A DNA stretch of 64,000 nucleotides, taken from the IMG/VR virus record IMGVR_UViG_3300006033_000017. One strand, given 5' to 3'. This document shows positions 26,295 through 57,806 of this stretch, piece by piece (positions within the stretch are counted from its first letter, which is position 1; each line of letters opens with the position of its first letter). Source of the DNA: a virus. Taxonomy: Duplodnaviria > Heunggongvirae > Uroviricota > Caudoviricetes. A model generated the notes under the pieces. That model made no database searches. It was not told the origin of the DNA and was given only the letters and a program-made list of their open reading frames with translations. The translations under genes and the position numbers were made by a program.

Positions 26295-26473
26295 TTAGGA
26301 TTACCACACACATACCCCATACACTGAGACAGATCTAGTTGGCACTTCGGGCAACGTGCAGGTTGCTTCTCAGTAAGATCGTCTGTAGGGAAGGAAGGAG
26401 GTGGCGTCAAAGGCCGGCGCTGACCTGCGCCCTTTGGGAATACCTCTCTTGCTGTCAATCGAAACTCTGCCAT
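26258..26473 (-). CDS. zinc-ribbon small protein (71 aa)
   Basis: CPKCQ...CGNPKCP; TTGACT-N17-TgcTATCAT promoter upstream. Confidence 0.4.
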   Translation of the reverse strand: MAEFRLTAREVFPKGAGQRRPLTPPPSFPTDDLTEKQPARCPKCQLDLSQCMGYVCGNPKCPIQIQVTCGV

Positions 26474-26568
26474 TTGTCTCTGCTCTCCAACCTAATGATA
26501 GCAGGAACCGTGTCGCAAGTCAAGCCCATTCCAGTTGGCGATATAATGAAATACGAAGGGAGCATATA

Positions 26569-27411
26569 ATGCCTGAACCAGAAGAAATGATGAGTGTTGC
26601 TGATGACTCTACCTCTCTAATCAGCCCCGAGCCCACCCCTATTCCTGTAGGAGCCACTGTTGTCGATATTGGTGCAATGGCAAACAAAGCACCTTCCGTG
26701 ATGTCTCTTGGTACCTATGATGACATTGGATTATCATTCACCAAAAGCACTATTGGAGCCTATATCACAAAAACCCCATTATCAAGGAAAGTGTGGATGA
26801 CTGTGTTGCATAACTCAGCTACTCCCGCCATGTATGATAAGGGCCTAGAAACCGTCAAGTCATTCAATAGCTACCATATCAACACTAACGGTTGGAAATG
26901 TATCGGCTATCATTGGGTGATTTCAACAGATGGAACCATTTATGCGGGCCGAAAGATGGAACTAACAGGAGCACATGCCGGAACTTATGGAAACCCAGGT
27001 TCTATTGGTGTTTGTCTCGTTGGTAATATCGAAGGTTCCGATAAAGTGACGCAGGCTCAGAAGGAATCGCTCGCTGCCCTACACTATGCTTTACACAAGA
27101 CATATTACGATGGGGCTGCGCCGAACATTAAGTTCCACAACGACAAAGATTTCCATATGAATACCGGCTGCCCTGGTAAAATCACTGTACCAGAAGTCAT
27201 GGACTGGGTTAACAAGTATGGAAGTCCTGGTATGGATAAGGGGACCGCGACAGAACCTTTAGTATATGTCAATGGGACAAAGATTGGCAAAGGCAAAATC
27301 TTTGAGGACTCGACATATATGAAAGTCAGGGACTTTGAGAAGGCGAACTTCGCCGTTATCTACAAAGGCGCACCCGACTTCACCGTCAACATCGTTGGCC
27401 CCAAAGTATAA
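26569..27411 (+). CDS. endolysin: N-acetylmuramoyl-L-alanine amidase (Amidase_2/PGRP domain) with a C-terminal wall-binding region
   Basis: GAAGGGAG RBS; GYHWVIS...GAHAG...NTGCPG zinc-amidase motifs. Confidence 0.75.
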   Translation: MPEPEEMMSVADDSTSLISPEPTPIPVGATVVDIGAMANKAPSVMSLGTYDDIGLSFTKSTIGAYITKTPLSRKVWMTVLHNSATPAMYDKGLETVKSFNSYHINTNGWKCIGYHWVISTDGTIYAGRKMELTGAHAGTYGNPGSIGVCLVGNIEGSDKVTQAQKESLAALHYALHKTYYDGAAPNIKFHNDKDFHMNTGCPGKITVPEVMDWVNKYGSPGMDKGTATEPLVYVNGTKIGKGKIFEDSTYMKVRDFEKANFAVIYKGAPDFTVNIVGPKV

Positions 27412-27488: not shown

Positions 27489-27707
27489 TTACCACTCATC
27501 ACGGTGCTCCTGTAATACCTTGATTGCTAACTTGCATCTCTGAATTGCTTCGGTAATAACCTCATCGGTCGCTTCTTCACGATACTTGTGTAGGACTGAG
27601 GCAACACAACCCTTTAACTCGGCTTCACCTATCTTGTAGAGGGAACGAGTTCCCATCGGTGCTAATTCTTGCATCATATAATACGCAAGCTTCATTGATG
27701 TCATCAT
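27489..27707 (-). CDS. hypothetical protein (72 aa)
   Basis: ORF overlapping the Thg1-like gene stop. Confidence 0.35.
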   Translation of the reverse strand: MMTSMKLAYYMMQELAPMGTRSLYKIGEAELKGCVASVLHKYREEATDEVITEAIQRCKLAIKVLQEHRDEW

Positions 27708-28471
27708 ACTTCTGCCTTCAGAATTGGCTCCGCGCCACGGAATACAACATCTTCCCTATTCGCGATGCGAGTCATAATAGGAATTGATAGTTGATGATAT
27801 TCTGAGCGTTGATATGTTTCACCAGTATCAGCTTTAGTGTGAAAAACTGGTACCTTCCTGAAATACGCACCACGCTTCAAGTGATCCGCATAATCATTCC
27901 AGTTAATGCCCTTCTGAAAGATCATCTCCTGAAGAGCATCGCATTTCTTGCCCTGCAACGCAGAGTGACTATAGAGACTCTGCGCAACCATCAAGATACT
28001 GTTGCGAACCGCATCGACTTCACGCCAGATCAAGGCGTTAGTGGCTTCATATTCAGTTGGGACGCTCCATACACGGCAATCAAACAAAGGGTTCAAATGC
28101 GCTTTCTTGGGAAGATAGGTCGGCAGTTGCTTGTTAAAGAAAACCGACGCCATACTTGCTAACAAAGAAGTCATCTTGGCAACACGACCATCAAAGAAGA
28201 TCTTGCGCTCAAAATCATCCTGTTGCCAAATTAGCGTAATTTCATCAGATTGTGTGTAAGAAATAACAGCATGAGTTTCTTTCACAAGATACTTAGCCGT
28301 TTCATGCATCAATTGCCGCAAATCATCATCAAATGGGCGCGCAAGGCCGCGACAAAATGAGTGAAATGCCTTACCATCTAGACGTGCCATGGCGGGCGCG
28401 AGCGGCATGAGTCGCGCTTGCGGGCCACAGTACAGGTTCTCATAGTATTTCATTCTATCCGACAGATCCAT
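27704..28471 (-). CDS. Thg1-like protein (tRNA-His guanylyltransferase family; 3'-5' nucleotidyltransferase)
   Basis: MARLDGKAFHSF ... ISYTQSDEITLIW aligns to the Thg1 catalytic core RLDGRNFHRF / AYGQSDEYSF; colinear similarity over the whole length. Confidence 0.8.
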   Translation of the reverse strand: MDLSDRMKYYENLYCGPQARLMPLAPAMARLDGKAFHSFCRGLARPFDDDLRQLMHETAKYLVKETHAVISYTQSDEITLIWQQDDFERKIFFDGRVAKMTSLLASMASVFFNKQLPTYLPKKAHLNPLFDCRVWSVPTEYEATNALIWREVDAVRNSILMVAQSLYSHSALQGKKCDALQEMIFQKGINWNDYADHLKRGAYFRKVPVFHTKADTGETYQRSEYHQLSIPIMTRIANREDVVFRGAEPILKAEV

Positions 28472-34645: not shown

Positions 34646-35845
34646 CTAAGCATTTTGCAATGTCTCGAATATCCGCGAATCTATAGGTTTGAAACCGGCA
34701 CCGTAAGGTCCGGTAAGGAATCGATTCAAAATATTCTTACTCGCGTTTGTATCCGCATTGTCTCCATGACCACAACTGAGACACAAGAACACCTCTCCGT
34801 TTCGATTCCTCTTATCGACATGACCACATAGCGGACAGGTGATACTGGTATTATAACACGAAACGGTTCTGAAGGAAACACGGTTTTCTTCACACCCCAT
34901 TTGTACCCGGTCTAACCAATATCGCCATACCCAACTGCCGATAACTCGACGCATACTTTTAGAGAGGCGTCGTCTCTCCTTTGCCTTATGGTTCAGATTA
35001 GATAACTTCTCCACAACCACAAGATCAATACTTTTATTAGTTACGATCTGCCTCGTAACTTCGTCTATTCGTTGTTTCAAGGCCCTACGAGCTTTCTTTT
35101 GGCCTTTCGATCCCTGATTACAACGATTGACTCTGTTCACACAATCTTTAATATCTCTACCTAATTGCTCTCCAGTAGAGAATGAAGCCAAAGCATTAAT
35201 CCCAGAGTCTATACCGATAGCATTGAGCCCCGTTTTCTTTGGACCAGTTTCAATCTCGAAACAGAACTGAACACTATCTCTGGTGATAATGTAGCTATTC
35301 AGTCTTGTTCCCAATTGATTCCATTTGTTGAAATGCTTGTGTTTTTTAATCGGAAGATCCATCACAATCTTATTGCCAATTGAAGCTAGATGCAACCAAG
35401 AATCAAATTCTGATGCTGCCTTTGAAGCCACTAACTTAGCAATGTTACAATTGGCGCAAATTCTATCTCCTTTGTGTGTCGGCTTAACGGGCTTGATTGT
35501 TTCTGCTTTTTGTCTTAATTGATTGGCCTTAACTTCGTATTTAGCTCTTTCTGCTTTGGCTAATAATCGTTTTTTCTCATTTTTGGCTTTCTCTTGAGAA
35601 GAATTAATCAGATCAATAGCTTCTCTTGCACAGACCTTTCTCATTCTATGAGAAAACCAAGAATCAGGGAGGTTGATTATATCTTTGAGCAAGTCTGCTT
35701 TTGTCGGGCATTTATCTAGTGCCCAGAAAGAATCAATGAAGATATTGCAGAGTCTTCCGTATTCGATCAACACAATGCTAAGCTCCTCTCTCTTTTTTAA
35801 GGTCGAGAATTTAAGGGTACATTGTGTTGACCGAATGATTTTCAC
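34646..35845 (-). CDS. tnpB: TnpB (IS605 OrfB-family RuvC-like, putative RNA-guided nuclease)
   Basis: RuvC-I GIDSGINALA, RuvC-II VVVEKLSN, zinc finger CPLCGH...CLSCGH, RuvC-III DNADTNASKNI; N-terminus MKIIRSTQCTLKF is typical. Confidence 0.8.
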   Translation of the reverse strand: MKIIRSTQCTLKFSTLKKREELSIVLIEYGRLCNIFIDSFWALDKCPTKADLLKDIINLPDSWFSHRMRKVCAREAIDLINSSQEKAKNEKKRLLAKAERAKYEVKANQLRQKAETIKPVKPTHKGDRICANCNIAKLVASKAASEFDSWLHLASIGNKIVMDLPIKKHKHFNKWNQLGTRLNSYIITRDSVQFCFEIETGPKKTGLNAIGIDSGINALASFSTGEQLGRDIKDCVNRVNRCNQGSKGQKKARRALKQRIDEVTRQIVTNKSIDLVVVEKLSNLNHKAKERRRLSKSMRRVIGSWVWRYWLDRVQMGCEENRVSFRTVSCYNTSITCPLCGHVDKRNRNGEVFLCLSCGHGDNADTNASKNILNRFLTGPYGAGFKPIDSRIFETLQNA

Positions 35846-36033
35846 TTACTGCCTTCTTTCAAAAATCGATCAATATCAGATAGCTTGTATAACCTTCGAT
35901 TACCTGGTGTGCGAATAGCCGTCAGACTTCCTTTTTCATCCCACTCTCTTAGGGTTTCTCGACGCACACCAATCATTTTGGCAGCCTCACCTATCTTAAT
36001 CATTTTATCATTTTCCATATCACTACCTTCCAC
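35842..36033 (-). CDS. MerR-like HTH DNA-binding protein (resembles the N-terminal domain of IS607 TnpA serine recombinase)
   Basis: IKIGEAAKMIGVRRETLREWDEKG helix-turn-helix; ATGA overlap with the tnpB start. Confidence 0.5.
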   Translation of the reverse strand: MEGSDMENDKMIKIGEAAKMIGVRRETLREWDEKGSLTAIRTPGNRRLYKLSDIDRFLKEGSK

Positions 36034-36095
36034 AACTAAACACTATATTCCTCTATATTATGAGGAATTAGAAATAAGCCTACCCTGCCAGAATT

Positions 36096-37385
36096 TTATG
36101 AACACCCACCCTCGCGCAAGCGAGTGATAATCGTTTGCTTAGTTGTCATACTAGTGCGATGATCAGTATACTCCTTGTGGTCCTTTACCATCGCGGTCAC
36201 GTTATAGAACTTGTGCATCTCCATATCAGGCTGAGTTGCAGAATACCAGATAGCGACATTACTATTACGATCCATCAACTTGTAGCAAACAGCCCCATAT
36301 CGACTGTAAGTATTGAATTGTCCAACCAGCTTCAGTTCGAAGTTGCCGCGTGCGCCGACTTCACCGAAGTAGTCACTATTTTCCGAAGCCTCTTGGGCGG
36401 AACGGACACGATCCATATACGGAAGGATGTACGCAGCAAGGCCAAGATGCTTATAGAGTACCCATTCCTGCTGGACGATAACCCACATATTGTAATCAAA
36501 GGTACTCATCTGAGCAGGATCCTTGTCCTTCAGATAGTCCCTGATCCAACTAAGGCCGTCCTTAGCCCGCTCCGTATCTTCAGCGGTAGGCGAGAGCTTG
36601 CCCCGACCCTTATCAGTCAACATGGTAGTTGCCATGTCAGAAGTAGAACAAGTGTAATTCAATTCTGCTTGCCGACGGGTAATGTAGCCTACCTTGCGGA
36701 TCGCCATGGAACAATACTCAAGATACCGCTCCATAGAGAAGCCATAAGTACCATGGTCACGTCCGCCAAACTCTTCATCACTCTCGGAAATTGTGCTGCA
36801 AGAGTCAAGGGTATCGAAGTAAGTCTGATACCAATCCGCGATACTCTGCACATCCTGAGCAGGGAAGAAGAAACTCAAGCAATTGCGACCAATCTGCTTG
36901 TACTCACCAGTTTCCTTGTTGTACAGAAGGAACGTCTCTTTGCGAGAACGAGACGTATGGCAGTAATCACACTGATGTTGAGTACGATACAGAACAGGAA
37001 CTTCAGCTTCCCAATAAGGAGCAACACGTACCATCGTTGGGTCAGTAGTATGGTCTAGGGTTGCCACTAGAATCCAATGAGAACAAAACTCAGGAACAGG
37101 CCCTTCACCAACAATCTCGATGTTATAGTACAGGATGTACTTATCGAGACCGTCAGAATCAGTAACCTTAGTAGTGTCCTGACTAATGATCTCACAGGTA
37201 ATTTCGGGAAGATCGAGCGTATTGCGTGCGCGCCAAGTACGAATCTTCTTGTTGGCCCTCTCGATGACTTTCGCGAGGTGATTGTAATTCGCCGCAGGTA
37301 CTCGGTACTGCTTGGGGTCCGCCGCCTTGACAGGTAGCGACTCAATCCGGGCCTCTCCGTAGCCGTTAGTATCAAAGGTGCTCAT
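36096..37385 (-). CDS. hypothetical protein (429 aa)
   Basis: long ORF; promoter TTGACA-N17-TggTACCAT at 37407..37435. Confidence 0.5.
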   Translation of the reverse strand: MSTFDTNGYGEARIESLPVKAADPKQYRVPAANYNHLAKVIERANKKIRTWRARNTLDLPEITCEIISQDTTKVTDSDGLDKYILYYNIEIVGEGPVPEFCSHWILVATLDHTTDPTMVRVAPYWEAEVPVLYRTQHQCDYCHTSRSRKETFLLYNKETGEYKQIGRNCLSFFFPAQDVQSIADWYQTYFDTLDSCSTISESDEEFGGRDHGTYGFSMERYLEYCSMAIRKVGYITRRQAELNYTCSTSDMATTMLTDKGRGKLSPTAEDTERAKDGLSWIRDYLKDKDPAQMSTFDYNMWVIVQQEWVLYKHLGLAAYILPYMDRVRSAQEASENSDYFGEVGARGNFELKLVGQFNTYSRYGAVCYKLMDRNSNVAIWYSATQPDMEMHKFYNVTAMVKDHKEYTDHRTSMTTKQTIITRLREGGCS

Positions 37386-37406
37386 GGTGGTGGTTCCTCT
37401 ACCCTT

Positions 37407-37435
37407 ATGGTACCACGCGCGCAGGCGCGTGTCAA
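37407..37435 (-). promoter_or_regulatory. sigma70-like promoter TTGACA-N17-TACCAT followed by AAGGGTAG
   Basis: minus-strand read. Confidence 0.5.
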
Positions 37436-37489
37436 GGGACTAGGATTCCTCAACAAAATGCAGTATTAATGGAATGAGGAGACACGGTT

Positions 37490-37849
37490 ATGGACAAGAC
37501 AAGTAAAACACTCACTAACACTGGTAGAAAGCATATTGCTCCCCACAATTTTGCTGTTGGCCCCGAGCATCCTAAGAATAAAGGAGATAAAGGGCATTTC
37601 CCAGTTCATGACAGAAGCCACGCAGAGAATGCAGTTGCTAGAGTAGAAGGTCTATCTAAAGCGCCCAGTTGGTGGTCGGGCACCTTATCTGAACTCAAAA
37701 CATTGGTTCGCAACAAGGCACATGGTCACTTCAAGCCAAAAACCGCATCTCTATCCGAAGCAATGAGTAGCATCCATAGATATGCCTATGGACAAGAAGA
37801 TCAAGAAGGTAAGGACTTACTCGACAAGATCATCGCTGGCTTGCTTTAA
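37490..37849 (+). CDS. hypothetical basic protein (119 aa)
   Basis: GGAG RBS. Confidence 0.4.
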   Translation: MDKTSKTLTNTGRKHIAPHNFAVGPEHPKNKGDKGHFPVHDRSHAENAVARVEGLSKAPSWWSGTLSELKTLVRNKAHGHFKPKTASLSEAMSSIHRYAYGQEDQEGKDLLDKIIAGLL

Positions 37850-38207
37850 GTCTTCGCTTCAAGTTCCTTGCAGTACCACTATCTTCATAACCTGGGCGAA
37901 CCCAGGCTATATCAGCATCTGATGCCTCTGTCATTGCAGCATCTTTCTTTGTCTGAGAAGTGAATCCACCGCAAGTCGGGAAATTACCCATGTTGTTACG
38001 TGGATTCTCATAAGCATGATATACAGTCACAGCCTCTTTAGATACCTGTTGAGCTAAATAGGCTTGAGCAATTTTATCTACCCCTGAACAATCACCCACA
38101 ACGAACTTAGCTTGAGGATCTTTCAGAGCATCCTCAATTATTGGCTCATAAAGAGCTATAAACTCTTCTGGTGTAATGTCTCTATGTCCACTGATGAAGT
38201 ATACCAT
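37830..38207 (-). CDS. SLOG/DprA-like Rossmann-fold small protein (DUF2493-like)
   Basis: ISGHRD ... VVGDCSGVDKIAQAYL resembles the SLOG/DprA GxGxDxxAxxxAL motif. Confidence 0.35.
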   Translation of the reverse strand: MVYFISGHRDITPEEFIALYEPIIEDALKDPQAKFVVGDCSGVDKIAQAYLAQQVSKEAVTVYHAYENPRNNMGNFPTCGGFTSQTKKDAAMTEASDADIAWVRPGYEDSGTARNLKRRLKASQR

Positions 38208-38238
38208 ATGAAGCCCTTTCGCTCATTTTAAGGTGAAG

Positions 38239-38742
38239 CTACCTGAAGAGTTTCTTAATCTTTCGAAGAAACTTCTTGGCCTCTTTTTGTACATTTGGTT
38301 CTGCCAAAGACAATAGAATTGACGAATTTGGGTCTCGTGTATATGTCTTATTTAATCTATTGTCTACAACATAACTCAAACAAATGTGATCCAATTTATT
38401 CAACGCAAAAATAGAATTAAGAACAGATATAGCAAAAGCATCAGCTTCATATTCATTTTGATAAAAAACTTCATCTCGATCAACATAACTGTGTCGAAAT
38501 AGAACATGCGCTATTTCATGAAGCAGAACATAGTAGTAGAGTAATGAGAATTTTGGCTTAACATAAATAGCAATATTCATGCCAAGACATGATCCCCAAT
38601 GTGCTGGCGAATCACCCTCATTGTGCTTAACGAGACGAATGTATCTCGCGGCACGAAGAAAAATACTATAGTAACGCGGCAATAGGATTCTTAAACTTAG
38701 ATACATCTTTGCTAGTTTGAATTTGTGTTTCAGAGACATCAA
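38239..38742 (-). CDS. ImmA/IrrE-family zinc metallopeptidase (M78)
   Basis: LHEIAHVLFRH (HExxH) plus downstream EYEADAFAISVL matches the M78 E-x-EA-x-FA-x-LL signature. Confidence 0.6.
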   Translation of the reverse strand: MMSLKHKFKLAKMYLSLRILLPRYYSIFLRAARYIRLVKHNEGDSPAHWGSCLGMNIAIYVKPKFSLLYYYVLLHEIAHVLFRHSYVDRDEVFYQNEYEADAFAISVLNSIFALNKLDHICLSYVVDNRLNKTYTRDPNSSILLSLAEPNVQKEAKKFLRKIKKLFR

Positions 38743-38753
38743 TTTGACCTTTA

Positions 38754-39350
38754 TTGAGAGTAATGATTGACCTCGCTGCCCTTACAACGATAAACCATCA
38801 GACTAACCCCATTATAGCACGACCGCAGCCGTTTGTTAAATCGCTTGACAACCCAATCACCCCATGGTATAATGATGATATGAAACCCATAAATCCAGTA
38901 TATGCGGCTCGTTTCGATGAAGCCAAATACTTACTAGAAAAACATCACGACCTATTTAGCGCTATTGTCTCTATTTCTGATAGAGAAGATGAGTTAATGC
39001 CACAAGCATTAACCCAAGACACCTATTGTCTGCGTCTAATCTTCACTGATACTGATGGTCGTCAACCTGACATAGCTATGTCTCTAGAACAAGCACAAGC
39101 TCTATATGATGCACTACCGACTATCACACAAGGAACAGGCACAATCCTGGTTCATTGCTCCGCAGGCTTGTGTCGCTCACCTGCGATTGCATATGTGATT
39201 ATGGCGTACCAATTCGGCCCCGGCAATGAAGCTCAAGCATACGCAGAGCTTTCTAAATTGAATCCTGTGATGCTACCTAACCAATGGGTGCTTAGTCAGT
39301 GCGAGAAGGTGATGCCGGGTTTTAAGTTACTACCAATTCTTAACAAATAA
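38754..39350 (+). CDS. Cys-based protein phosphatase (tyrosine/dual-specificity type)
   Basis: HCSAGLCRS = CX5R(S/T) P-loop. Confidence 0.6.
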   Translation: MRVMIDLAALTTINHQTNPIIARPQPFVKSLDNPITPWYNDDMKPINPVYAARFDEAKYLLEKHHDLFSAIVSISDREDELMPQALTQDTYCLRLIFTDTDGRQPDIAMSLEQAQALYDALPTITQGTGTILVHCSAGLCRSPAIAYVIMAYQFGPGNEAQAYAELSKLNPVMLPNQWVLSQCEKVMPGFKLLPILNK

Positions 39351-39776
39351 GTTGGGGGCTTCGCCCCCATCAACTATGCTATTCCAAAAGCCACTAGCCG
39401 TACTATTCCAACCACTTCCCACTAAACGCTTCGGAGTCGTCTCCAAGATCATATGTGCTAATCTCTTGCCAATCCCCTGTCGGCGATAATAAGGTGTAAC
39501 AAACGCAAAGATTTTATCTGCTACATTTAGATAAAGCGCAGGAGCACGCAAACACCAACCTATAATAAGACCGTTGGCATTAGTAGCAATTGCGAACTTA
39601 GAATCTATCCATTTGGGGTGCGTGGCAAGATCCGACTCATTCCTCTGCGCCGCGTTAATCATACCACGCATGATACTATGAGTAGGGATTGTTAGCTGCT
39701 TAATGCGTTCCTTCTCTTGCTCACTTAGGTTGTTAAATGTGGTTAATGTGTAATGTATATCGCTTATAGATCGCAT
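39330..39776 (-). CDS. GNAT-family N-acetyltransferase
   Basis: YYRRQGIGKRLAHMILE acetyl-CoA-binding motif (R/Q-x-x-G-x-G/A). Confidence 0.6.
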   Translation of the reverse strand: MRSISDIHYTLTTFNNLSEQEKERIKQLTIPTHSIMRGMINAAQRNESDLATHPKWIDSKFAIATNANGLIIGWCLRAPALYLNVADKIFAFVTPYYRRQGIGKRLAHMILETTPKRLVGSGWNSTASGFWNSIVDGGEAPNLFVKNW

Positions 39777-40522: not shown

Positions 40523-40718
40523 TGACTAGGCTCTCCTCTCGAATCATCCCAATGTAGTCATACTCATCCGCCAACAAAACAGTGATGTCTTCGTGCAAAC
40601 GATCTAGACAATGCCAAGTGTCTTCATCTAAGCAACTTTCCATTCTTTCCCCGAATAGTTCAGTGAAAGCCCTATAGCACCTATCTAGTGTTGCTTTGTA
40701 GACATCTAACTGTTTCAT
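40470..40718 (-). CDS. hypothetical protein (82 aa)
   Basis: ORF. Confidence 0.35.
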   Translation of the reverse strand: MKQLDVYKATLDRCYRAFTELFGERMESCLDEDTWHCLDRLHEDITVLLADEYDYIGMIREESLVNEKGQPQHFQTITQITI

Positions 40719-41278
40719 GGTACATCCCCTGTCAGAATATACCTTGTAGCCAAAGCCATCGCATGTGGTAACGCATCCGTATTAGTCACAGTTTGTACAG
40801 ACAAAGATAGATTTTGCCTACAAGGATACCTATGGCATGTTTCTTTCTCCCAGTATTCAATCTCCTCTGTCCATATGCGATATGTAACAAATCTATCTAT
40901 ATCATCTCCAAGCGAAAACCATATAATCTGACCATCAGAGAATTTTCGAGACACTATTACTGCATTGTTGTAAACCTTCCAGCCCCCCAAATTCAATATA
41001 CCATAGAGTCTTCGATGAGCCACTAATTCATCAAATATTCTATTAACTGTATCTTGGACAACTAACGAAGTGTGGCATTGGTTGTGAGCTACAAAATCAA
41101 AGATCCTATTCTTACACTGTTCCATTTCTTGAATTTGATCCTTAAACCAACGTAGTATCGGGGAGAAAGATATCAACTCTATAAGTTGCTTATTGGTGTA
41201 ACCAAAGTCATAAAGGGTATTATTCTTATTCGCCATATTTGTTGGGCGCGGGATAATATGCGCACTACATTGACTCAT
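40715..41278 (-). CDS. GDDI-motif family protein, paralog 2
   Basis: IWFSLGDDIDRFVTYR. Confidence 0.5.
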   Translation of the reverse strand: MSQCSAHIIPRPTNMANKNNTLYDFGYTNKQLIELISFSPILRWFKDQIQEMEQCKNRIFDFVAHNQCHTSLVVQDTVNRIFDELVAHRRLYGILNLGGWKVYNNAVIVSRKFSDGQIIWFSLGDDIDRFVTYRIWTEEIEYWEKETCHRYPCRQNLSLSVQTVTNTDALPHAMALATRYILTGDVP

Positions 41279-41810
41279 AAATCACCTTTTCACCAAGTGA
41301 AACATAGTTTCTGGCAACCCTATGTGCGGCGCGCATATCACTAACACATATGGGTTCTGGATCCCCATGCAGATCTCTACTCTCTCCCTGTTTCTCGAAG
41401 AGCTTCGCATACCAACGAAGCTCTTCATTAGGTCCCGATATATTGCCTGCCAATGCAAGTCTAGGGATATCGTCACCTATAGGGAAGAATAGTCGCAAAT
41501 TCCCACTCTCACCTAAAAGGCACAATTGGCCCAGCCACACCCCATGAATCAATTCAACATTGGCGCTATACGTATGCAACCGGCGCACCTGATCCAAATG
41601 CTTATAGACAATTGCCATCGCATCAGCTACAACATCACCAAAGTAATTGAACATGCTATGCATTCTACGCTCGCACTCATAAAGCTCAATATGCTTGCTT
41701 CTCAAATAGGATCTGCCGGGAATATTGCCATCTAGTAATGATGAAAATTCAGTGTTAGTAATACCAAAGTCTGCTAAATGACTTTCGAGTTGGTTCCTAT
41801 AGATTTCCAT
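41265..41810 (-). CDS. GDDI-motif family protein, paralog 3
   Basis: LFFPIGDDIPRLALAG. Confidence 0.5.
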   Translation of the reverse strand: MEIYRNQLESHLADFGITNTEFSSLLDGNIPGRSYLRSKHIELYECERRMHSMFNYFGDVVADAMAIVYKHLDQVRRLHTYSANVELIHGVWLGQLCLLGESGNLRLFFPIGDDIPRLALAGNISGPNEELRWYAKLFEKQGESRDLHGDPEPICVSDMRAAHRVARNYVSLGEKVIYESM

Positions 41811-41821
41811 GTTATCTCCAG

Positions 41822-42520
41822 CTACACATTATAGAATGGCGGATGAAGTCCATCTGAATCATACTGATCCGAAGTATGTTGGTCCGCATTCCATACCTTA
41901 ACACCCGCGATGATATATCGAATAATGCGTTCCTGCCATATATGATCAGAAATTGGCATAGAGCTAACCAGTAAATTCTCTTTGCAGGGGTACTTTTTGC
42001 TACTTTGCTGTCGCCAGAATTGAAGCTCTTTAGGGGCGCGGACAGCAAAACGGCCTATGTCATCACCTAAGGCATAGTATAAACCTGAACCATCAATCCA
42101 ATCTACCTTGTCACGGTCATAGATATCAAATACTGGCTTGCAATTAACAATAACTACCGCATTATAATTCTCTACGGCAAAGTTGGTGCAAATGTAGTAA
42201 ATCCGTTTTAGTAGGGTGATTTGTGCCGCAATTCTATTCTGCGCATTCAGTAACTTAACTCTCGCGTTAGTGTCGCTTGGCATAACCTTTGACATAATCT
42301 TGATCATGCGAGATTGTATAGTGGTCGCCTCTATCAACAACGCCCTAGCCCTCTCGGGATTTTCGACATCCCCGAGACAATAGAACTCGAAGATTCTATT
42401 GGCTAGATTGTTGGTAATCTCTAGATTCTCAAAGTAAACTATCGGTGTAATTGCTCGCCCCATATTGGTTTCGCTATTATAGGTTGGAACACTCATTTCG
42501 ACTCCTTCAGGAACAGGCAA
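41822..42520 (-). CDS. GDDI-motif family protein, paralog 4
   Basis: LYYALGDDIGRFAVRA. Confidence 0.5.
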   Translation of the reverse strand: MPVPEGVEMSVPTYNSETNMGRAITPIVYFENLEITNNLANRIFEFYCLGDVENPERARALLIEATTIQSRMIKIMSKVMPSDTNARVKLLNAQNRIAAQITLLKRIYYICTNFAVENYNAVVIVNCKPVFDIYDRDKVDWIDGSGLYYALGDDIGRFAVRAPKELQFWRQQSSKKYPCKENLLVSSMPISDHIWQERIIRYIIAGVKVWNADQHTSDQYDSDGLHPPFYNV

Positions 42521-43239
42521 TACTTCTTCTGAATGGTCTTTATCTCAAGATCCTTGATTACACCTTTTTGGATATAGTTCACAATACACGAAAATGCACC
42601 CTTGTCGCTAGAATAGTGATGCTCGATCATTCTTAAAGCATCGTTTAGCGCAATACCCGGATTATCCTTGGCAGCGGCTTTCAGTAGCTCCACAGTGTTT
42701 CTAAATTTCGAGAATCGCGCACCACCTGATGAGCCTGCATCCTTAAAGGTCTTCTGCCCCTCAAGCAGCGATTGTTTTATCCTCTTGCTATTTACACGCC
42801 TATGCAGAGCAGGCAGCGGAAGCTGCGTTACTGTCCCATCTAAGCATTCTTCATCATAGCTGCTTTTAGCGGTGGGCCGCACAGAAAAACAACCTATACC
42901 TTTGCTGCTTAAGACCGAGTTGATGAAGCTAATCTCACGATAATCCTTCTTGGGAGTTGGTATTGCTATAGATACCCTATGAGCATAAGGTAGCCATTGA
43001 TTAGCCTGAGCAAGTAATTGAAAGCTGAGTGTCCTTTTGCATTCAATTACCCAGATCACCCCATCCCTAACCGCAACGATATCAGCTACGACTTCGGAAC
43101 CAAGATGCGGCAAGAAGACAGGAACTTCCTGATATACATCCCAGTTCTCATTAGTGAGTTCATCCACAACAGGTCTAGCGACGTGGCGCTCACTACTAGG
43201 CCAAGATGATTTAGGTAGTTTCTCCCGTGTCTTTCTCAT
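42493..43239 (-). CDS. PD-(D/E)xK restriction-endonuclease-fold protein
   Basis: VADIVAVRDGVIWVIECK fits a D...(D/E)xK nuclease core. Confidence 0.4.
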   Translation of the reverse strand: MRKTREKLPKSSWPSSERHVARPVVDELTNENWDVYQEVPVFLPHLGSEVVADIVAVRDGVIWVIECKRTLSFQLLAQANQWLPYAHRVSIAIPTPKKDYREISFINSVLSSKGIGCFSVRPTAKSSYDEECLDGTVTQLPLPALHRRVNSKRIKQSLLEGQKTFKDAGSSGGARFSKFRNTVELLKAAAKDNPGIALNDALRMIEHHYSSDKGAFSCIVNYIQKGVIKDLEIKTIQKKYCLFLKESK

Positions 43240-51244: not shown

Positions 51245-51273
51245 ATTATAGCACGTCGTGAGCCGCTTGTCAA
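51245..51273 (-). promoter_or_regulatory. sigma70-like promoter TTGACA-N17-TgcTATAAT + AAGGGTAG
   Basis: minus-strand cgagTTGACAagcggctcacgacgtgcTATAATaagggtag. Confidence 0.55.
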
Positions 51274-51689
51274 CTCGTAATTGGCCCACCACGCATGGGT
51301 TTATTGAATAAATCAAGTAGCCATGAGCATTTATAGGTATTGTTAGCTTGGCAAATGACTCGTTCCGCAAAATACCAAGACCATAGCTCTAGGTCGTAAT
51401 ATGCCGTTCCGCCATTAGGATGAAGGCAAATACCGATATCTGGCTGCGTAAATATCTTGCATTTGATACAATTTACGGTATCATCTTCATTCACTTTTAA
51501 CTCAACATCCACACAACAGTACCGTTCTTGAAGTAGCAGGCCACCATCTTTAATGCCCTGATTGATTTCGAATAGAATTTTGCAATTCGACCCAAAGTGA
51601 GCGTTACCATTAAGAAAGGTAGCCACTTCAGCGGCGATAACTCTTGCCTTCTTTAATCTTGCTTCATAATCTACCATATCAGTCACCAT
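51270..51689 (-). CDS. hypothetical Cys-rich protein (139 aa)
   Basis: ORF. Confidence 0.4.
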   Translation of the reverse strand: MVTDMVDYEARLKKARVIAAEVATFLNGNAHFGSNCKILFEINQGIKDGGLLLQERYCCVDVELKVNEDDTVNCIKCKIFTQPDIGICLHPNGGTAYYDLELWSWYFAERVICQANNTYKCSWLLDLFNKPMRGGPITS

Positions 51690-52248
51690 ATAGATTGTTA
51701 TCTAAAATATAGTGCATAAGCTCAGGACATTCATGATACATCAAGGCTGCCTTGAGTCTATCATTCTCTAGGGGTGGAATCTCAGTCTTAAACTGTTCTC
51801 TAATCCATGTACTATGCTCACCAATATCGGGCACGGAGAAGATATTCACGGAAGCACACAATCGCTCCGCACGAAACCAGTGTTGTAGATTAAACAATGT
51901 ATCAGAACCAATAATTAGAACTAGATTATCCCTACTAAGATTCTCATGGATGTGATAGTGTTGCACCAAGTCATAGGTGTTCTGAATATCAAAATCCCTC
52001 TCCACACTATTAACAAAAGCCCGAGCATGACAACATTTGTGTAAGAGATTAGTCATATGAAATCGGTGTTCATATGACACATTAGAGGTTTTCAATGGTT
52101 GCCTATTTGTTGGCGTAATACCAATCGAAAAATCACTGGAACGCTTACCATAGCCATTAAATGCAGCAGCAGCAGTATGTAATGCTCTAAGATGACCAAG
52201 ATGTGGTGGGTCAAACATTCCGCCATAAAGCCCAAAACTAACCATCAC
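51679..52248 (-). CDS. nicotinate/nicotinamide mononucleotide adenylyltransferase-like (NadD/NMNAT family)
   Basis: GGMFDPPHLGH (GxFxPxHxGH) and C-terminal HSTWIRE (SxTxxR) motifs. Confidence 0.6.
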   Translation of the reverse strand: MMVSFGLYGGMFDPPHLGHLRALHTAAAAFNGYGKRSSDFSIGITPTNRQPLKTSNVSYEHRFHMTNLLHKCCHARAFVNSVERDFDIQNTYDLVQHYHIHENLSRDNLVLIIGSDTLFNLQHWFRAERLCASVNIFSVPDIGEHSTWIREQFKTEIPPLENDRLKAALMYHECPELMHYILDNNLYGD

Positions 52249-52310: not shown

Positions 52311-53213
52311 CTACTGCGTAGGTGCCGGCATCTGAATCATAGGTGTTGCACCACCTACGACCATTGGTTGCTTGCCGTCCCACTTCTCAATAGCAGCCTT
52401 CTGATTCTGAATGCGCTGCCAGTCCACCATGATAGAAGTCAGGCTATTAGTCAACAGAGCGTTAGCCTTCGCCTGACCCTCAGCTTTAACGCGCGCAGAT
52501 TCCGCCTCACCGCGAGCCGACTCAATTTGCTGAGTTGCTACAGCCTTAGTCTCACGGATCTTATTCTCTGCGGCAACAGCCTTGTTGGTCGCGGTAATTG
52601 CGGCAACAATTGACTCCGAAACCTGAGAATCTAGGCGCAGGTCAGAAACAAAACTCACCATGTTAACCTGGAAGCCATCCGCACCTAGACGAGTACTTAG
52701 ATCGTCAGTTACCTGCTTCAGTAGCTCGGCTTTACCTTCACCATAGATCTTTACAATCGGCATCTTCGATGCATGACGACTCAGAGAATCGCGAACCTGA
52801 GAACGCAGATAAACATTCGAGATACCAGTGATATCCTGACGGAACTTCTTGAGGATCGACGGCACCTTGGCTGAATCCAAAGTAAAGGCCAGGGAAACAT
52901 CAACACGGACCAATGCACCCTCAACAGAGTTGAAAGCCATACTCTCATCAACGGGCGCACCTTCATGGGCACTTGCGGTCCAGTTGATCGTCTTCATAAA
53001 GGTCGGGTAACGATAAAGAATGGTAGTCAAAGGATTGTAGAATACGCGACCAGTAACAACTGGCATGTTATTCACACCCTTATTCCCGCCATACATATTG
53101 ACCTTAACGCCAACCCACCCCGGCTCAATCACCGAGGAGCAGAAAAGCAACACACCCAGAGGCATCAACAGAATCACCACTAGTGCGGCGATGATACCAA
53201 TTCGCTTTGTCAT
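52311..53213 (-). CDS. SPFH/band-7 (stomatin/prohibitin/HflKC-like) membrane protein
   Basis: N-terminal TM helix; SPFH-like core; Ala/Glu/Gln-rich coiled coil (AESARVKAEGQAKA). Confidence 0.65.
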   Translation of the reverse strand: MTKRIGIIAALVVILLMPLGVLLFCSSVIEPGWVGVKVNMYGGNKGVNNMPVVTGRVFYNPLTTILYRYPTFMKTINWTASAHEGAPVDESMAFNSVEGALVRVDVSLAFTLDSAKVPSILKKFRQDITGISNVYLRSQVRDSLSRHASKMPIVKIYGEGKAELLKQVTDDLSTRLGADGFQVNMVSFVSDLRLDSQVSESIVAAITATNKAVAAENKIRETKAVATQQIESARGEAESARVKAEGQAKANALLTNSLTSIMVDWQRIQNQKAAIEKWDGKQPMVVGGATPMIQMPAPTQ

Positions 53214-53952: not shown

Positions 53953-54231
53953 CTAATTCATTTCATCTCGCAAGGTAGAAGCACCAAATTCCCGCAACGC
54001 GGCTTCGAATTCTTCTGCATCTTCTTGCGTAATCGCACCAAACTTTACACGGTCCTTAACCGACGCTGCCATATCAAGGATTTCATCAGGATCACTATAG
54101 ACCTTTGGTACCGGCAAATTGCACTTGGGGCACACAAAGATGATAGCAATATCGGGACCATCATTCTGAACAACTTGCGAAGCGTGTTCAGCATACAATG
54201 GCTCACCACAGGAACAATTGATTTCAGACAT
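53953..54231 (-). CDS. zinc-ribbon protein (92 aa)
   Basis: CSCGE...CPKCN; start overlaps the ATPase stop (TGATG). Confidence 0.45.
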   Translation of the reverse strand: MSEINCSCGEPLYAEHASQVVQNDGPDIAIIFVCPKCNLPVPKVYSDPDEILDMAASVKDRVKFGAITQEDAEEFEAALREFGASTLRDEMN

Positions 54232-55103
54232 TATCTCGTACCTCTAAGTTGATCGATCTTATCCCGCGCGGCATCGACGGTTTTCTTGGCTTCTTCCATT
54301 AGACTAATAGCATCTGCCATGTAATTATAGAAAGCACAGCGTGCCTCTTTAGCATATCCTGCATGGATGTCAATGATGTTAAAAGCCAGATTGCCAGCCA
54401 ACAAAGGCAGAACTGAGTGCGTAGATACAATCACTTGACATTGTTCTGCCAATGTCGGAATGAAGTTCTGCCAGAACTTCGTTTGTAGCGGCACCTCAAA
54501 CCAATTATCAGGCTCATCCAATAGTACCGTAACTTTACCAGTAGAGTTGAGACTCTTGATGTAGTCAACCTGATCTTGAATTTTGTGTTGACCAACAGGC
54601 TCTTTATACTTGGCTAGCATATCTTCCCAAACGATGGGTTTCTCAATAGCAGCATTCAACCTCGCGAGTCGATATAGGTTGATTTGACCCTCACTCATTT
54701 GATTGGCGTTAACCTGATCCACCATACCGGAAACGCCATCAAGAGAGCCATTGTCGCTATCCATGAAGTAGCCAACATGCTTGATGTTGATTGTTCCATC
54801 ATAGAAGAAGGTAGGCGTACCGTCCCAATCAATTTCAGCAATACAACCATGAGATGCCTTTCGCTCAAGCATTTCGGCGACTGTATTACCACGATGAGGA
54901 GTCAAAGAGCCCCAGCCTGCCTCATTCACAGAAACATCAATGAAGCATCGAGCAGCCATCATCTTTAGGAGGGTCGTTTTACCACAACCATTAGGTCCCC
55001 ATAGGATATTAGGCATTGAAGTAGAGAACTCAATCACCCGACCATCTTTCAGATCAGGTAGCTCGGCGGCGTATCCAGAAATTGTCTTAACAGATCGAAT
55101 CAT
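54231..55103 (-). CDS. compact ABC-type ATPase (AAA_21/RecF-like)
   Basis: Walker A GPNGCGKTTLL, signature-like MSEGQ, Walker B VLLDEPD, H-loop STHS. Confidence 0.7.
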   Translation of the reverse strand: MIRSVKTISGYAAELPDLKDGRVIEFSTSMPNILWGPNGCGKTTLLKMMAARCFIDVSVNEAGWGSLTPHRGNTVAEMLERKASHGCIAEIDWDGTPTFFYDGTINIKHVGYFMDSDNGSLDGVSGMVDQVNANQMSEGQINLYRLARLNAAIEKPIVWEDMLAKYKEPVGQHKIQDQVDYIKSLNSTGKVTVLLDEPDNWFEVPLQTKFWQNFIPTLAEQCQVIVSTHSVLPLLAGNLAFNIIDIHAGYAKEARCAFYNYMADAISLMEEAKKTVDAARDKIDQLRGTR

Positions 55104-57777: not shown

Positions 57778-57806
57778 ATTATAGCATGGCGGGCCGCGCA
57801 TGTCAA
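57778..57806 (-). promoter_or_regulatory. sigma70-like promoter TTGACA-N17-TgcTATAAT + AAGGGTATG driving the tRNA cluster
   Basis: minus-strand gcTTGACAtgcgcggcccgccatgcTATAATaagggta; leader hairpin GGGAAGG-n9-CCTTCCC at 57741..57763. Confidence 0.55.

Follow-up and report, generated by a model that had tools for sequence, protein, structure and literature searches.

Morons, a general parallel to the locus described here, have classically been described in temperate phages. Among proteases, ImmA/IrrE (phi105 ORF2, ICEBs1 ImmA; 148-170 aa) belong to an immunity module and have their HExxH motif some 70 residues into the chain, with an ExEAxxFA helix after it, and Lit of prophage e14 (MEROPS U49) is a protein of 297 aa. 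Atypical DSPs (VHR/DUSP3, plant LSF2) combine an HCxxGxxRS P-loop with a minimal single domain. A survey (Iyer, Burroughs, Anantharaman and Aravind 2022, PMC9503650) predicts that stand-alone SLOG domains of viruses act against NAD+/ADP-ribose-based immunity, and it reports SLOG fusions to effector domains in phages. A GxD/E signature has been described for the YpsA clade of SLOG proteins (PMC6459960). The discovery of enzymes that destroy cADPR signals has only just begun (PMC13232231).

The locus lies in a window of 64,000 nucleotides, the whole stretch of DNA analysed, from an uncultivated element on a contig of about 157 kb. The source is most likely a tailed phage: signs of phage origin are PHROG matches, an endolysin, the domains Thg1 and Gp80, and distant similarity of its proteins to those of Vibrio and Aeromonas phages. 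The region had no megablast match in GenBank phages, and a tRNA scan found no tRNA genes in the window. A preliminary description had placed four small enzymes here, quoted the motifs HEIAH, EYEADAFA, HCSAGLCRS and RRQGIGKRL, and read the genes as a functional island on alternating strands. All four open reading frames and all four motifs were recovered; the actual strand order is minus, minus, plus, minus. The features are as follows.

37490..37849, plus strand: open reading frame of 119 aa, function not assigned; strong Shine-Dalgarno, weak match to phrog_16160
37830-38207, minus strand: SLOG gene, 125 aa
38239-38742, minus strand: zincin (peptidase) gene, 167 aa, or 166 aa from the likely start ATG 38739; HEIAH at residues 75-79, EYEADAFA at residues 97-104
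38754-39350, plus strand: phosphatase open reading frame as originally listed; start corrected to ATG 38880, 156 aa
38811..38839, minus strand: predicted leftward σ70-type promoter, TTAACA-17-TATAAT with TG before the -10, 11/12 (promoter scan)
38845..38873, plus strand: predicted rightward σ70 promoter of perfect consensus, TTGACA-17-TGgTATAAT, 12/12
38880..39350, plus strand: phosphatase gene, P-loop H92-C93-SAGLC-R99-S100, the same in the L003 orthologue
39330-39776, minus strand: GNAT gene, 148 aa; RRQGIGKRL at residues 98-106
39353..39369: GC-rich hairpin GGGGGCTTCGCCCCC, terminator-like on the minus strand (terminator scan and sequence)

The four genes are real and their catalytic motifs intact; the idea that they are ORF artefacts was rejected because of their dN/dS values, the confident SLOG fold and those motifs. 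The SLOG and zincin genes share a strand and are separated by a 31-nt gap, in which the terminator scan found no terminator. The 119-aa frame overlaps the 3' end of the SLOG gene by 20 nt. The phosphatase and GNAT genes converge with a 21-nt overlap, and the hairpin sits at their converging 3' ends, within the last GNAT codons. The GNAT gene in turn overlaps a 252-aa gene by 13 nt and would be the last gene of an upstream leftward operon.

The two promoters are matches to the σ70-type consensus, that is, predicted promoters and not mapped transcription starts. Perfect consensus promoters occur three times in the window, against 0.07 expected. The leftward promoter appears placed to drive the gene in the zincin slot and probably also the SLOG gene, and its -10 block ATTATAGCAC is kept in L003, a related metagenome contig, despite a different downstream gene. 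The rightward promoter is also kept there. Since its -10 element ends 6 nt before ATG 38880, the phosphatase mRNA would be leaderless or nearly so. Conserved consensus σ70 promoters arranged back to back suggest early expression by the host RNA polymerase. These predicted signals divide the four genes, which occupy both strands, among three transcription units.

The SLOG gene product is a stand-alone SLOG-fold protein of the YpsA/YspA-like assemblage. Its model, a three-layer α/β fold of Rossmannoid type, can be superposed on SLOG structures already known, and at the level of the model the fold is well supported. The curated SLOG profile PF10686 (YAcAr/DUF2493) gave no match for the window protein in Pfam and matched 10 of the 85 family members (best E=7.8e-4). 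The early call of a SLOG-like Rossmann protein was borne out by the fold. Across 85 sequences S6-G7-H8 and G42-x-D44 vary little or not at all, and the latter corresponds to the GxD/E signature described for the YpsA clade; the invariant residues, 15 in all, also include G38-D39 and S110-G111-T112. The dN/dS against L003 is 0.08. Identity to solved SLOG proteins (e.g. B. subtilis YpsA, PDB 2nx2) is 10-20%, and sequence and profile searches of the PDB with the family were empty.

The family comprises 127 protein clusters and 205 IMG/VR loci, with hosts that include Lak megaphages, giant viruses, myxobacteria and cyanobacteria; among GenBank phages only Lak megaphages and one gut phage carry it. 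In one group of large phages, making up about 10 of the 33 phage lineages, the SLOG gene comes directly behind a Nudix gene within a nicotinamidase-NAPRTase-NMNAT-NAD synthase cluster. No conserved neighbour was seen at the 56 loci in cellular genomes. Placement in the Nudix/NAD+ clusters would fit the clearing of ADPR-type immune signals, or the feeding of ribose-phosphate and bases into phage NAD+ synthesis. A tentative possibility is that the family acts on NAD+/ADP-ribose-derived molecules as an enzyme or takes them up as a sponge. The family is experimentally unstudied and has no Pfam model, and the 2022 prediction is general to viral SLOG domains.

The peptidase reads as an orphan HExxH zincin whose catalytic core of about 40 residues resembles both ImmA (M78) and Lit (U49). 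HExxH and the downstream ExEA(N/D)xFA helix with the third zinc ligand are both present in its sequence, and the three known family members all share H75-E-I-A-H79 and E97-Y-E-A-D-A-F-A104. The preliminary description had called it an M78 peptidase. The helix pair speaks for this, as does an hhalign match (42 columns, probability 85%) to the established M78 protease phi105 ORF2, with HELGH...YEVEANTFA aligned to HEIAH...EYEADAFA; the Pfam M78 model PF06114 gave no match at E<=1, against 66.4 bits for phi105 ORF2 as control. Its Pfam matches are all below threshold (U49, MPTase-PolyVal, M48, YgjP-like), that to U49 (PF10463) scoring 13.5 bits at a cut-off of 23.9. The best curated HMM match is the NCBIfam model "phage exclusion protein Lit" (E=6.7e-7), at 28.8 bits against a cut-off of 274 and over residues 71-108 only. 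A match to phrog_87 was found at 3e-5. PADLOC returned core matches to Lit (5e-5) and peptidase_U41 only, and no match for the SLOG protein, the phosphatase or the GNAT protein. Against Lit itself hhalign gave 60% over 37 columns, pairing HEIAHVLFRH...EYEAD with HEISHVVLQH...EREAD. The protein falls below the family threshold of M78 as well as of Lit, and we assign it to neither. Sequence and profile searches of the PDB gave non-significant matches only, and the AF2 model (pLDDT 47, from a 3-sequence alignment) was unusable.

Only two homologues of the zincin, both distant, were found among 1.8-5.8 billion proteins. A word-index search returned the zincin itself only; HMMER, run in full against 1.8 billion representatives, yielded one true homologue and a spurious ankyrin-repeat match, and a profile search added one further homologue. 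One of the two, P0123, has M78 (PF06114) as its best Pfam match (E=0.002, 18.2 bits, cut-off 22). P0123 and its counterpart P0124 lie in primase and SNF2-helicase (replication) modules, with no SLOG neighbour and no HTH gene recorded beside either. In the window, too, the peptidase stands without an adjoining HTH repressor, as had been pointed out before: its neighbours are the SLOG and phosphatase genes, and the nearest HTH is a MerR-type open reading frame 2.2 kb away, attached to TnpB. At 34.7% GC against 44.1%, the zincin gene has the lowest GC content in the window, 3.4 SD below the window mean.

The phosphatase is a credible DSP-type Cys enzyme, judged by its motif and profile matches. 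Its start is ATG 38880, as in the L003 orthologue, and not 38754; the orthologue shares this Met start, is 90% identical and gives a dN/dS of 0.33. Candidate general acids are D57, D59 and D64, all kept in L003; they precede C93 by 36, 34 and 29 residues. All 15 PDB profile matches at E<0.1 are Cys phosphatases of DSP or Cdc14 type. The Cys phosphatase call of the preliminary description agrees with the HCX5R P-loop; Pfam DSPc (PF00782) matches at E=1.2e-6, with 28.8 bits below the gathering score of 33.5. The nearest phage homologue adjoins a tRNA array.

The GNAT gene product is a probable, if weakly supported, acetyltransferase. Motif A (R98-R-Q-G-I-G-K104) is present and kept in L003, whose orthologue is 78% identical with a dN/dS of 0.21, and phrog_1249 "acetyltransferase" matches at 2e-6. 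Acetyltransf_7, _1 and _10 match with E-values between 5e-4 and 0.036, and none of them reaches its cut-off (20.8 bits against 27 for Acetyltransf_7, 16.2 against 20.7 for Acetyltransf_1). The only two PDB matches, RimI and another N-acetyltransferase, align at motif A. The GNAT assignment survives in weak form, and the four domain guesses were largely right in kind.

L003 is the sole close relative in all collections searched. A metagenome scan with the phosphatase recovered this contig only, and IMG/VR scans with a 429-aa neighbour, the phosphatase and the GNAT protein found nothing. By blastn, positions 34934-37470 are 98.3% identical to L003 and the SLOG, DSP and GNAT genes 85-88%, and the zincin gene has no similarity to it. 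Its slot in L003 holds an unrelated gene for a 162-aa lipoprotein-like protein. A 372-bp indel at 37471-37842, window sequence that has no counterpart in L003, accounts for the 119-aa frame. The other three genes are syntenic, and the 21-nt overlap and the hairpin are kept as well. Per-gene dS values are 0.85, 0.155, 0.65 and 0.084, a tenfold spread between neighbouring genes. The alignment with L003 establishes a mosaic history and the conservation of the promoter motifs. As there is only one close relative, the "variable slot" has been deduced from one pairwise comparison. The zincin gene would be its recently acquired cargo, most likely as part of an accessory patch.

With moderate confidence we read the locus as a hypervariable patch of accessory genes that have been swapped independently, and not as a functional system. 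Early in infection the host RNA polymerase would read the divergent σ70 promoters at 38811-38873. Rightward, a leaderless mRNA would encode a small DSP-type phosphatase with Cys93 as nucleophile, Arg99 binding phosphate and an upstream Asp as general acid. Leftward, transcription would pass through a cargo slot, occupied here by the AT-rich HExxH zincin, into the SLOG gene, and the GNAT gene would close the leftward operon upstream, ending at the shared hairpin. Most likely the four proteins each act alone: the SLOG protein might have a nucleotide of the NAD+/ADP-ribose type as ligand or cleave it, the phosphatase might remove phosphate from a substrate that belongs to the host or derives from a nucleotide, the GNAT protein might acetylate a small molecule or a protein, and the zincin would cut some protein. 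The timing of expression, the substrates of all four proteins and any part they play in host takeover are inferred. Plausibly the four are early, host-directed accessory genes, a reading based on the conserved consensus σ70 promoters and on the 2022 prediction for viral SLOG domains.

The island of the preliminary description would be one anti-defence or host-takeover cassette, in which an orphan ImmA-type protease cuts a defence protein or a repressor of host or prophage, aided by a SLOG sensor, a phosphatase and an acetyltransferase. The four genes do adjoin, early-type promoters are present, the zincin core is ImmA-like by hhalign and three of the genes are syntenic in L003. The protease is nevertheless missing in L003, where an unrelated gene fills its slot, and is compositionally foreign here; the genes differ tenfold in dS between neighbours and form three transcription units on two strands, and the homologues of zincin and phosphatase sit in unrelated contexts. 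Sequence similarity and simple motifs were also used to search the surroundings of 141 other SLOG loci. With phmmer and simple motif scans, relatives of zincin, phosphatase and GNAT were found near the SLOG gene at 0 of 85 phage or metagenome loci and at 0 of 56 cellular loci, and the four components showed no co-occurrence or co-variation across genomes. Four weakly annotatable neighbours among some 120 small genes would make no statistical case beyond chance. We regard such a cassette as distinctly unlikely. The same survey bears on a smaller module, in which zincin and SLOG gene, both off the leftward promoter, would work together, the SLOG protein sensing an ADP-ribose-derived signal and gating the protease. 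Their common strand, the short gap without a detected terminator and the SLOG-effector fusions reported from phages (PMC9503650) would suit it. In L003, however, the SLOG gene follows the lipoprotein-like gene, the 141 other SLOG genes have no zincin of this family in their vicinity and the zincin homologues have no SLOG neighbour, which leaves the module very improbable.

A functional pair of phosphatase and GNAT, modifying a common target, would account for the retention of both genes, their overlap and the hairpin in L003. Their dS values (0.155 against 0.65) point instead to separate histories, the genes lie on opposite strands behind separate promoters, and searches of IMG/VR and metagenomes produced no example of the pair beyond L003; we consider it unlikely. 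A last alternative is a Lit-like exclusion or abortive protease that would cut a translation factor upon infection by a competing phage. Lit provides the best curated HMM match and a PADLOC match, and hhalign pairs the two active-site segments, yet the likeness covers about 38 residues at scores far below the NCBIfam and Pfam U49 cut-offs, the zincin has 167 aa against 297 aa in Lit, and the alignment with the ImmA-like protein is no worse; M78 is also the best Pfam match of P0123. A Lit-like role is highly doubtful. The evidence from L003, GC content, dS, homologue contexts and the 141 SLOG loci contradicts a system of four genes and favours the patch of independently swapped genes.

As an "island" the locus matters little, and reflects ordinary shuffling of small accessory genes by large phages. 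It does show that adjoining recognisable domains are not evidence of a system. The SLOG family is very well conserved, widespread in large phages and missed by Pfam. Because its genes follow Nudix in NAD+ synthesis clusters of phages, it is a concrete candidate for studies of how phages counter NAD+-based immunity. The three-member zincin family, with a core between ImmA and Lit, could help to trace the kinship of these proteases.

Compared with described systems, the window SLOG protein is stand-alone and in a large phage, like those of the viral SLOG survey (PMC9503650). In contrast to the Nudix/NAD+-linked phage members, its gene is not beside Nudix, Macro or NADAR genes; we claim no link to an NAD+ cluster at this locus, because the only NAD+ gene nearby is an NMNAT-like gene 13 kb away. 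The zincin is like ImmA/IrrE in size, in the position of HExxH and in the helix that follows. It differs in that its remainder has no detectable similarity, in having no HTH repressor as neighbour and in a setting that is a virulent-looking accessory region rather than an immunity module. With Lit it has the active-site helix pair in common, HEI(A/S)HV..(R/Q)H and then E(Y/R)EAD. The phosphatase has both the P-loop and the minimal single domain of atypical DSPs, its best PDB matches being LSF2, VHR, DUSP14 and Cdc14, and differs from them in its 156 aa without a substrate-recognition extension and in its score below the Pfam gathering score; the "tyrosine phosphatase-like protein" of Virus Rctr197k is 35% identical to it. 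In overall organization the locus is like phage morons and hypervariable accessory regions, which have their own promoter and terminator, as the units here appear to have, and which it also resembles in one gene of atypical GC and in a fixed slot whose gene differs from one close relative to the other.

The most likely reading of the locus is a mosaic patch of accessory genes that are independent and probably expressed early; each of the four would be a divergent representative of a superfamily already known. The preliminary description is confirmed in part: all four ORFs that it placed at 37830-39776 are real; the strands, said there to alternate, in fact run -, -, +, -.

Features of the locus (window positions)
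37490-37849, +, fifth small gene, a 119-aa ORF overlapping the end of p1
37830-38207, -, p1, SLOG gene
38239-38742, -, p2, putative peptidase gene
38839-38811, -, predicted leftward promoter, 11/12 match
38845-38873, +, predicted rightward promoter, perfect TTGACA-17-TATAAT with TG before the -10
38880-39350, +, p3, putative phosphatase gene, start at ATG 38880
39330-39776, -, p4, probable GNAT gene
39353-39369, GC-rich hairpin at the convergence of p3 and p4

The window derives from a 157,149-bp metagenomic contig (ENA ERZ27247451 k141_1195142). A second copy of the locus is present on a Logan contig from SRR5457253, and GenBank phages gave no nucleotide match to the window. A 429-aa phrog_2319 protein (relatives at 26% identity in Vibrio and Aeromonas phages) and an amidase endolysin are encoded in the window, and the contig records list Thg1 and Gp80 domains. 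Because of these phage-type genes the source was treated as a putative large uncultivated tailed phage. The endolysin gene lies at 26401-27411 and the Thg1-like gene (tRNA-His guanylyltransferase family) at 27704-28471; a tRNA scan of the window found no tRNA genes.

The single close relative of the locus, L003 (JGI 3300014204, 4.4 kb), has the same gene order: GNAT, phosphatase (opposite strand), SLOG, 429-aa gene, MerR-type HTH and TnpB. At the position of p2 it carries an unrelated 162-aa lipoprotein-like gene. The blastn comparison of the window with L003 shows a sharp mosaic: identity is 98.3% over 34934-37470 and 85-88% over p1, p3 and p4, similarity is absent over p2, and L003 lacks 372 bp with the 119-aa ORF. 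Between neighbouring genes dS spans a tenfold range (SLOG 0.85, GNAT 0.65, phosphatase 0.155, 429-aa gene 0.084), with all four under purifying selection (dN/dS 0.08-0.33). The GC content of p2 (34.7%) is the lowest of any 504-bp stretch in the window (44.1±2.8%). Further SLOG-carrying loci comprised 85 from phages or metagenomes (five metagenome contigs, the other 80 from IMG/VR) and 68 from cellular genomes, 56 of which gave a called SLOG ORF. None of the 85 phage/metagenome and 56 cellular loci has a relative of p2, p3, p4 or any other neighbour of SLOG in the window. Simple motif scans of the 1,348 ORFs neighbouring SLOG returned one HCX5R protein, four large unrelated zincins and no GNAT motif A. 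On other phage-like contigs the two distant homologues of p2 are flanked by a primase-helicase on one side and an SNF2 helicase on the other, and the closest phage homologue of p3 has an HNH endonuclease and a tRNA array beside it. Judged from these comparisons, p1-p4 do not travel together. They had been proposed to form a host-manipulation or anti-defence cassette; the data, from the replacement of p2 in L003, the mosaic identity and the spread of dS to the GC outlier and the lack of co-occurrence at other SLOG loci, speak against that reading.

The TnpB gene (34646-35845, -, Cas12f1-like_TNB) is preceded, with a 4-nt overlap, by a 63-aa MerR/HTH_17 ORF (35842-36033). These two and the 429-aa gene form a block (34646-37470) that matches L003 at 98.3% identity; in the adjoining genes identity falls to 85-88%. 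Such a pattern would be consistent with a recent exchange around TnpB, or with co-conversion of a homing-like kind. Three tandem paralogues at 40715-42520 (-; 187, 181 and 232 aa) show 21-27% identity to one another, have an invariant GDDIxR motif in common and lack any significant match in Pfam, PHROGs, NCBIfam or PADLOC. A 248-aa phrog_12193 protein (42493-43239) shows weak NERD and Hjc nuclease-like matches, and an AAA_21 (AbiEii-type) ATPase is encoded at 54231-55103.

The expression layout is a prediction from sequence only. The start of p3 is placed at ATG 38880 and not at TTG 38754, because the L003 orthologue begins at the same Met and the first stretch of the long ORF is taken up by a promoter. 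The resulting 138-bp spacer from p2 holds two back-to-back promoters. The -10 of the rightward one ends 6 nt before the ATG, which would give p3 a leaderless mRNA; the leftward one is positioned to serve p2 and probably p1. Both cores are kept in L003 amid diverged flanks, despite the different gene downstream of the leftward promoter. Perfect consensus promoters number three in the window, where 0.07 would be expected, and the conserved cores together with this excess suggest early transcription by the host polymerase. The three (38845-38873(+), 51245-51273(-) and 57778-57806(-); TTGACA-N17-TATAAT, each with TG directly before the -10) probably act as strong promoters early in infection, recognised by host σ70 RNA polymerase. 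p4 overlaps an upstream 252-aa gene, whose operon it would end. Given the divergent promoters, the hairpin and this operon end, three transcription units are predicted.

For p3, the intact P-loop HCSAGLCRS and the PDB profile matches, every one a DSP or Cdc14-type enzyme, support the proposed phosphatase, although its Pfam DSPc score (28.8 bits, E=1.2e-6) stays below gathering (33.5). Aspartates that could serve as the general acid are found 29-36 residues before the catalytic Cys, and the closest phage protein (35% identity) is annotated tyrosine phosphatase-like. The GNAT assignment of p4 is probable, not proven: motif A is present, PHROGs gives phrog_1249 'acetyltransferase' at 2e-6, and the only two PDB matches are acetyltransferases aligned at motif A, but the Pfam matches are all weak (Acetyltransf_7 5e-4, Acetyltransf_1 0.013, Acetyltransf_10 0.036).

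The SLOG assignment of p1 was correct. Pfam and a PDB sequence search returned nothing for p1, and its 127 homologous protein clusters contain no Pfam domain. An AlphaFold model built from an 85-sequence alignment is confident (pLDDT 96.5); its matches among predicted viral structures are proteins of giant viruses and phages with the labels YspA/cpYpsA-related SLOG or DprA-like. PF10686 matches weakly in 10/85 family members, and the YpsA-clade GxD/E signature (PMC6459960) has its counterpart in the invariant G42-x-D44. According to a 2022 survey, large phages commonly encode stand-alone SLOG domains of the YpsA-like type, which are found together with Nudix, Macro and NADAR domains; the survey predicted that they process ADP-ribose-derived immune signals (PMC9503650). 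A 2026 preprint reports that no protein degrading 2'/3'cADPR had been known until its RyR-domain enzyme (PMC13232231). In roughly half of the 85 phage/metagenome loci a Nudix gene lies directly upstream of SLOG, in a cluster also holding isochorismatase (nicotinamidase-type), NAPRTase, cytidylyltransferase-like NMNAT, NAD synthase, YqeY and dNMP kinase. Dereplicated at 70% SLOG identity, this arrangement occurs in ~10/33 lineages and is absent from those closest to p1; the window's only gene of the NAD+ cluster is NMNAT-like, 13 kb from p1. Among the cellular homologues (Nannocystis, Hahella, Nostoc, Calothrix, Gemmata) no neighbour is conserved. Of everything at the locus, only the SLOG family merits experimental work.

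The NMNAT-like cytidylyltransferase gene (51679-52248, Pfam 1e-10) adjoins an SPFH/Band 7 gene (52311-53213). A conserved 160-aa gene ~1 kb upstream of SLOG, around the Nudix gene (in ~43 IMG/VR loci besides L083 4971-5453), lacks a Pfam match and is an unannotated member of the NAD+ cluster. Some jumbo-phage loci (contigs 250-380 kb) have an NAD+-consuming Tpt1/KptA RNA 2'-phosphotransferase ~3.7 kb from SLOG (L086 2209-2742), and in locus L012, which carries the closest IMG/VR SLOG homologue, a Thg1-like gene directly adjoins SLOG. The SLOG cluster P0098 has 1,899 member sequences, on contigs reaching about 185 kb in the collection (124-185 kb among those fetched). This cluster carries an acidic insertion and occurs in many variants that differ in internal deletions (L009 and L010 5001-5546; proteins P0098-P0110); the variation could reflect genuine microdiversity or arise from assembly or gene calling as an artefact.

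The peptidase p2 had been described as an orphan M78/ImmA enzyme. No HTH gene adjoins it, as stated, and it is nearly orphan, with only two relatives (P0123 and P0124) among billions of proteins; all three share H75, E76, H79, E97 and E99. M78 membership is not established: PF06114 does not match p2, and the sub-threshold Pfam matches are to other zincin families (U49, MPTase-PolyVal, M48, YgjP-like). The best curated match is Lit (NCBIfam 6.7e-7, PADLOC 5e-5; residues 71-108 only), phrog_87 'metallo-protease' matches at 3e-5, and the top Pfam match of P0123 is M78 (E=0.002). The AlphaFold model (pLDDT 47) is unusable. The hhalign controls were E. coli Lit and ORF2 of phage phi105, the latter a genuine M78 protease (PF06114 at 2.7e-18). 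From the zincin matches and these controls p2 is predicted to be a small HExxH...ExEA zincin with a catalytic core between ImmA and Lit, and 'ImmA-like' fairly describes its probable mode of action: the p2-family profile aligns with phi105 ORF2 at 85% probability over 42 columns, and with Lit at 60% over 37.
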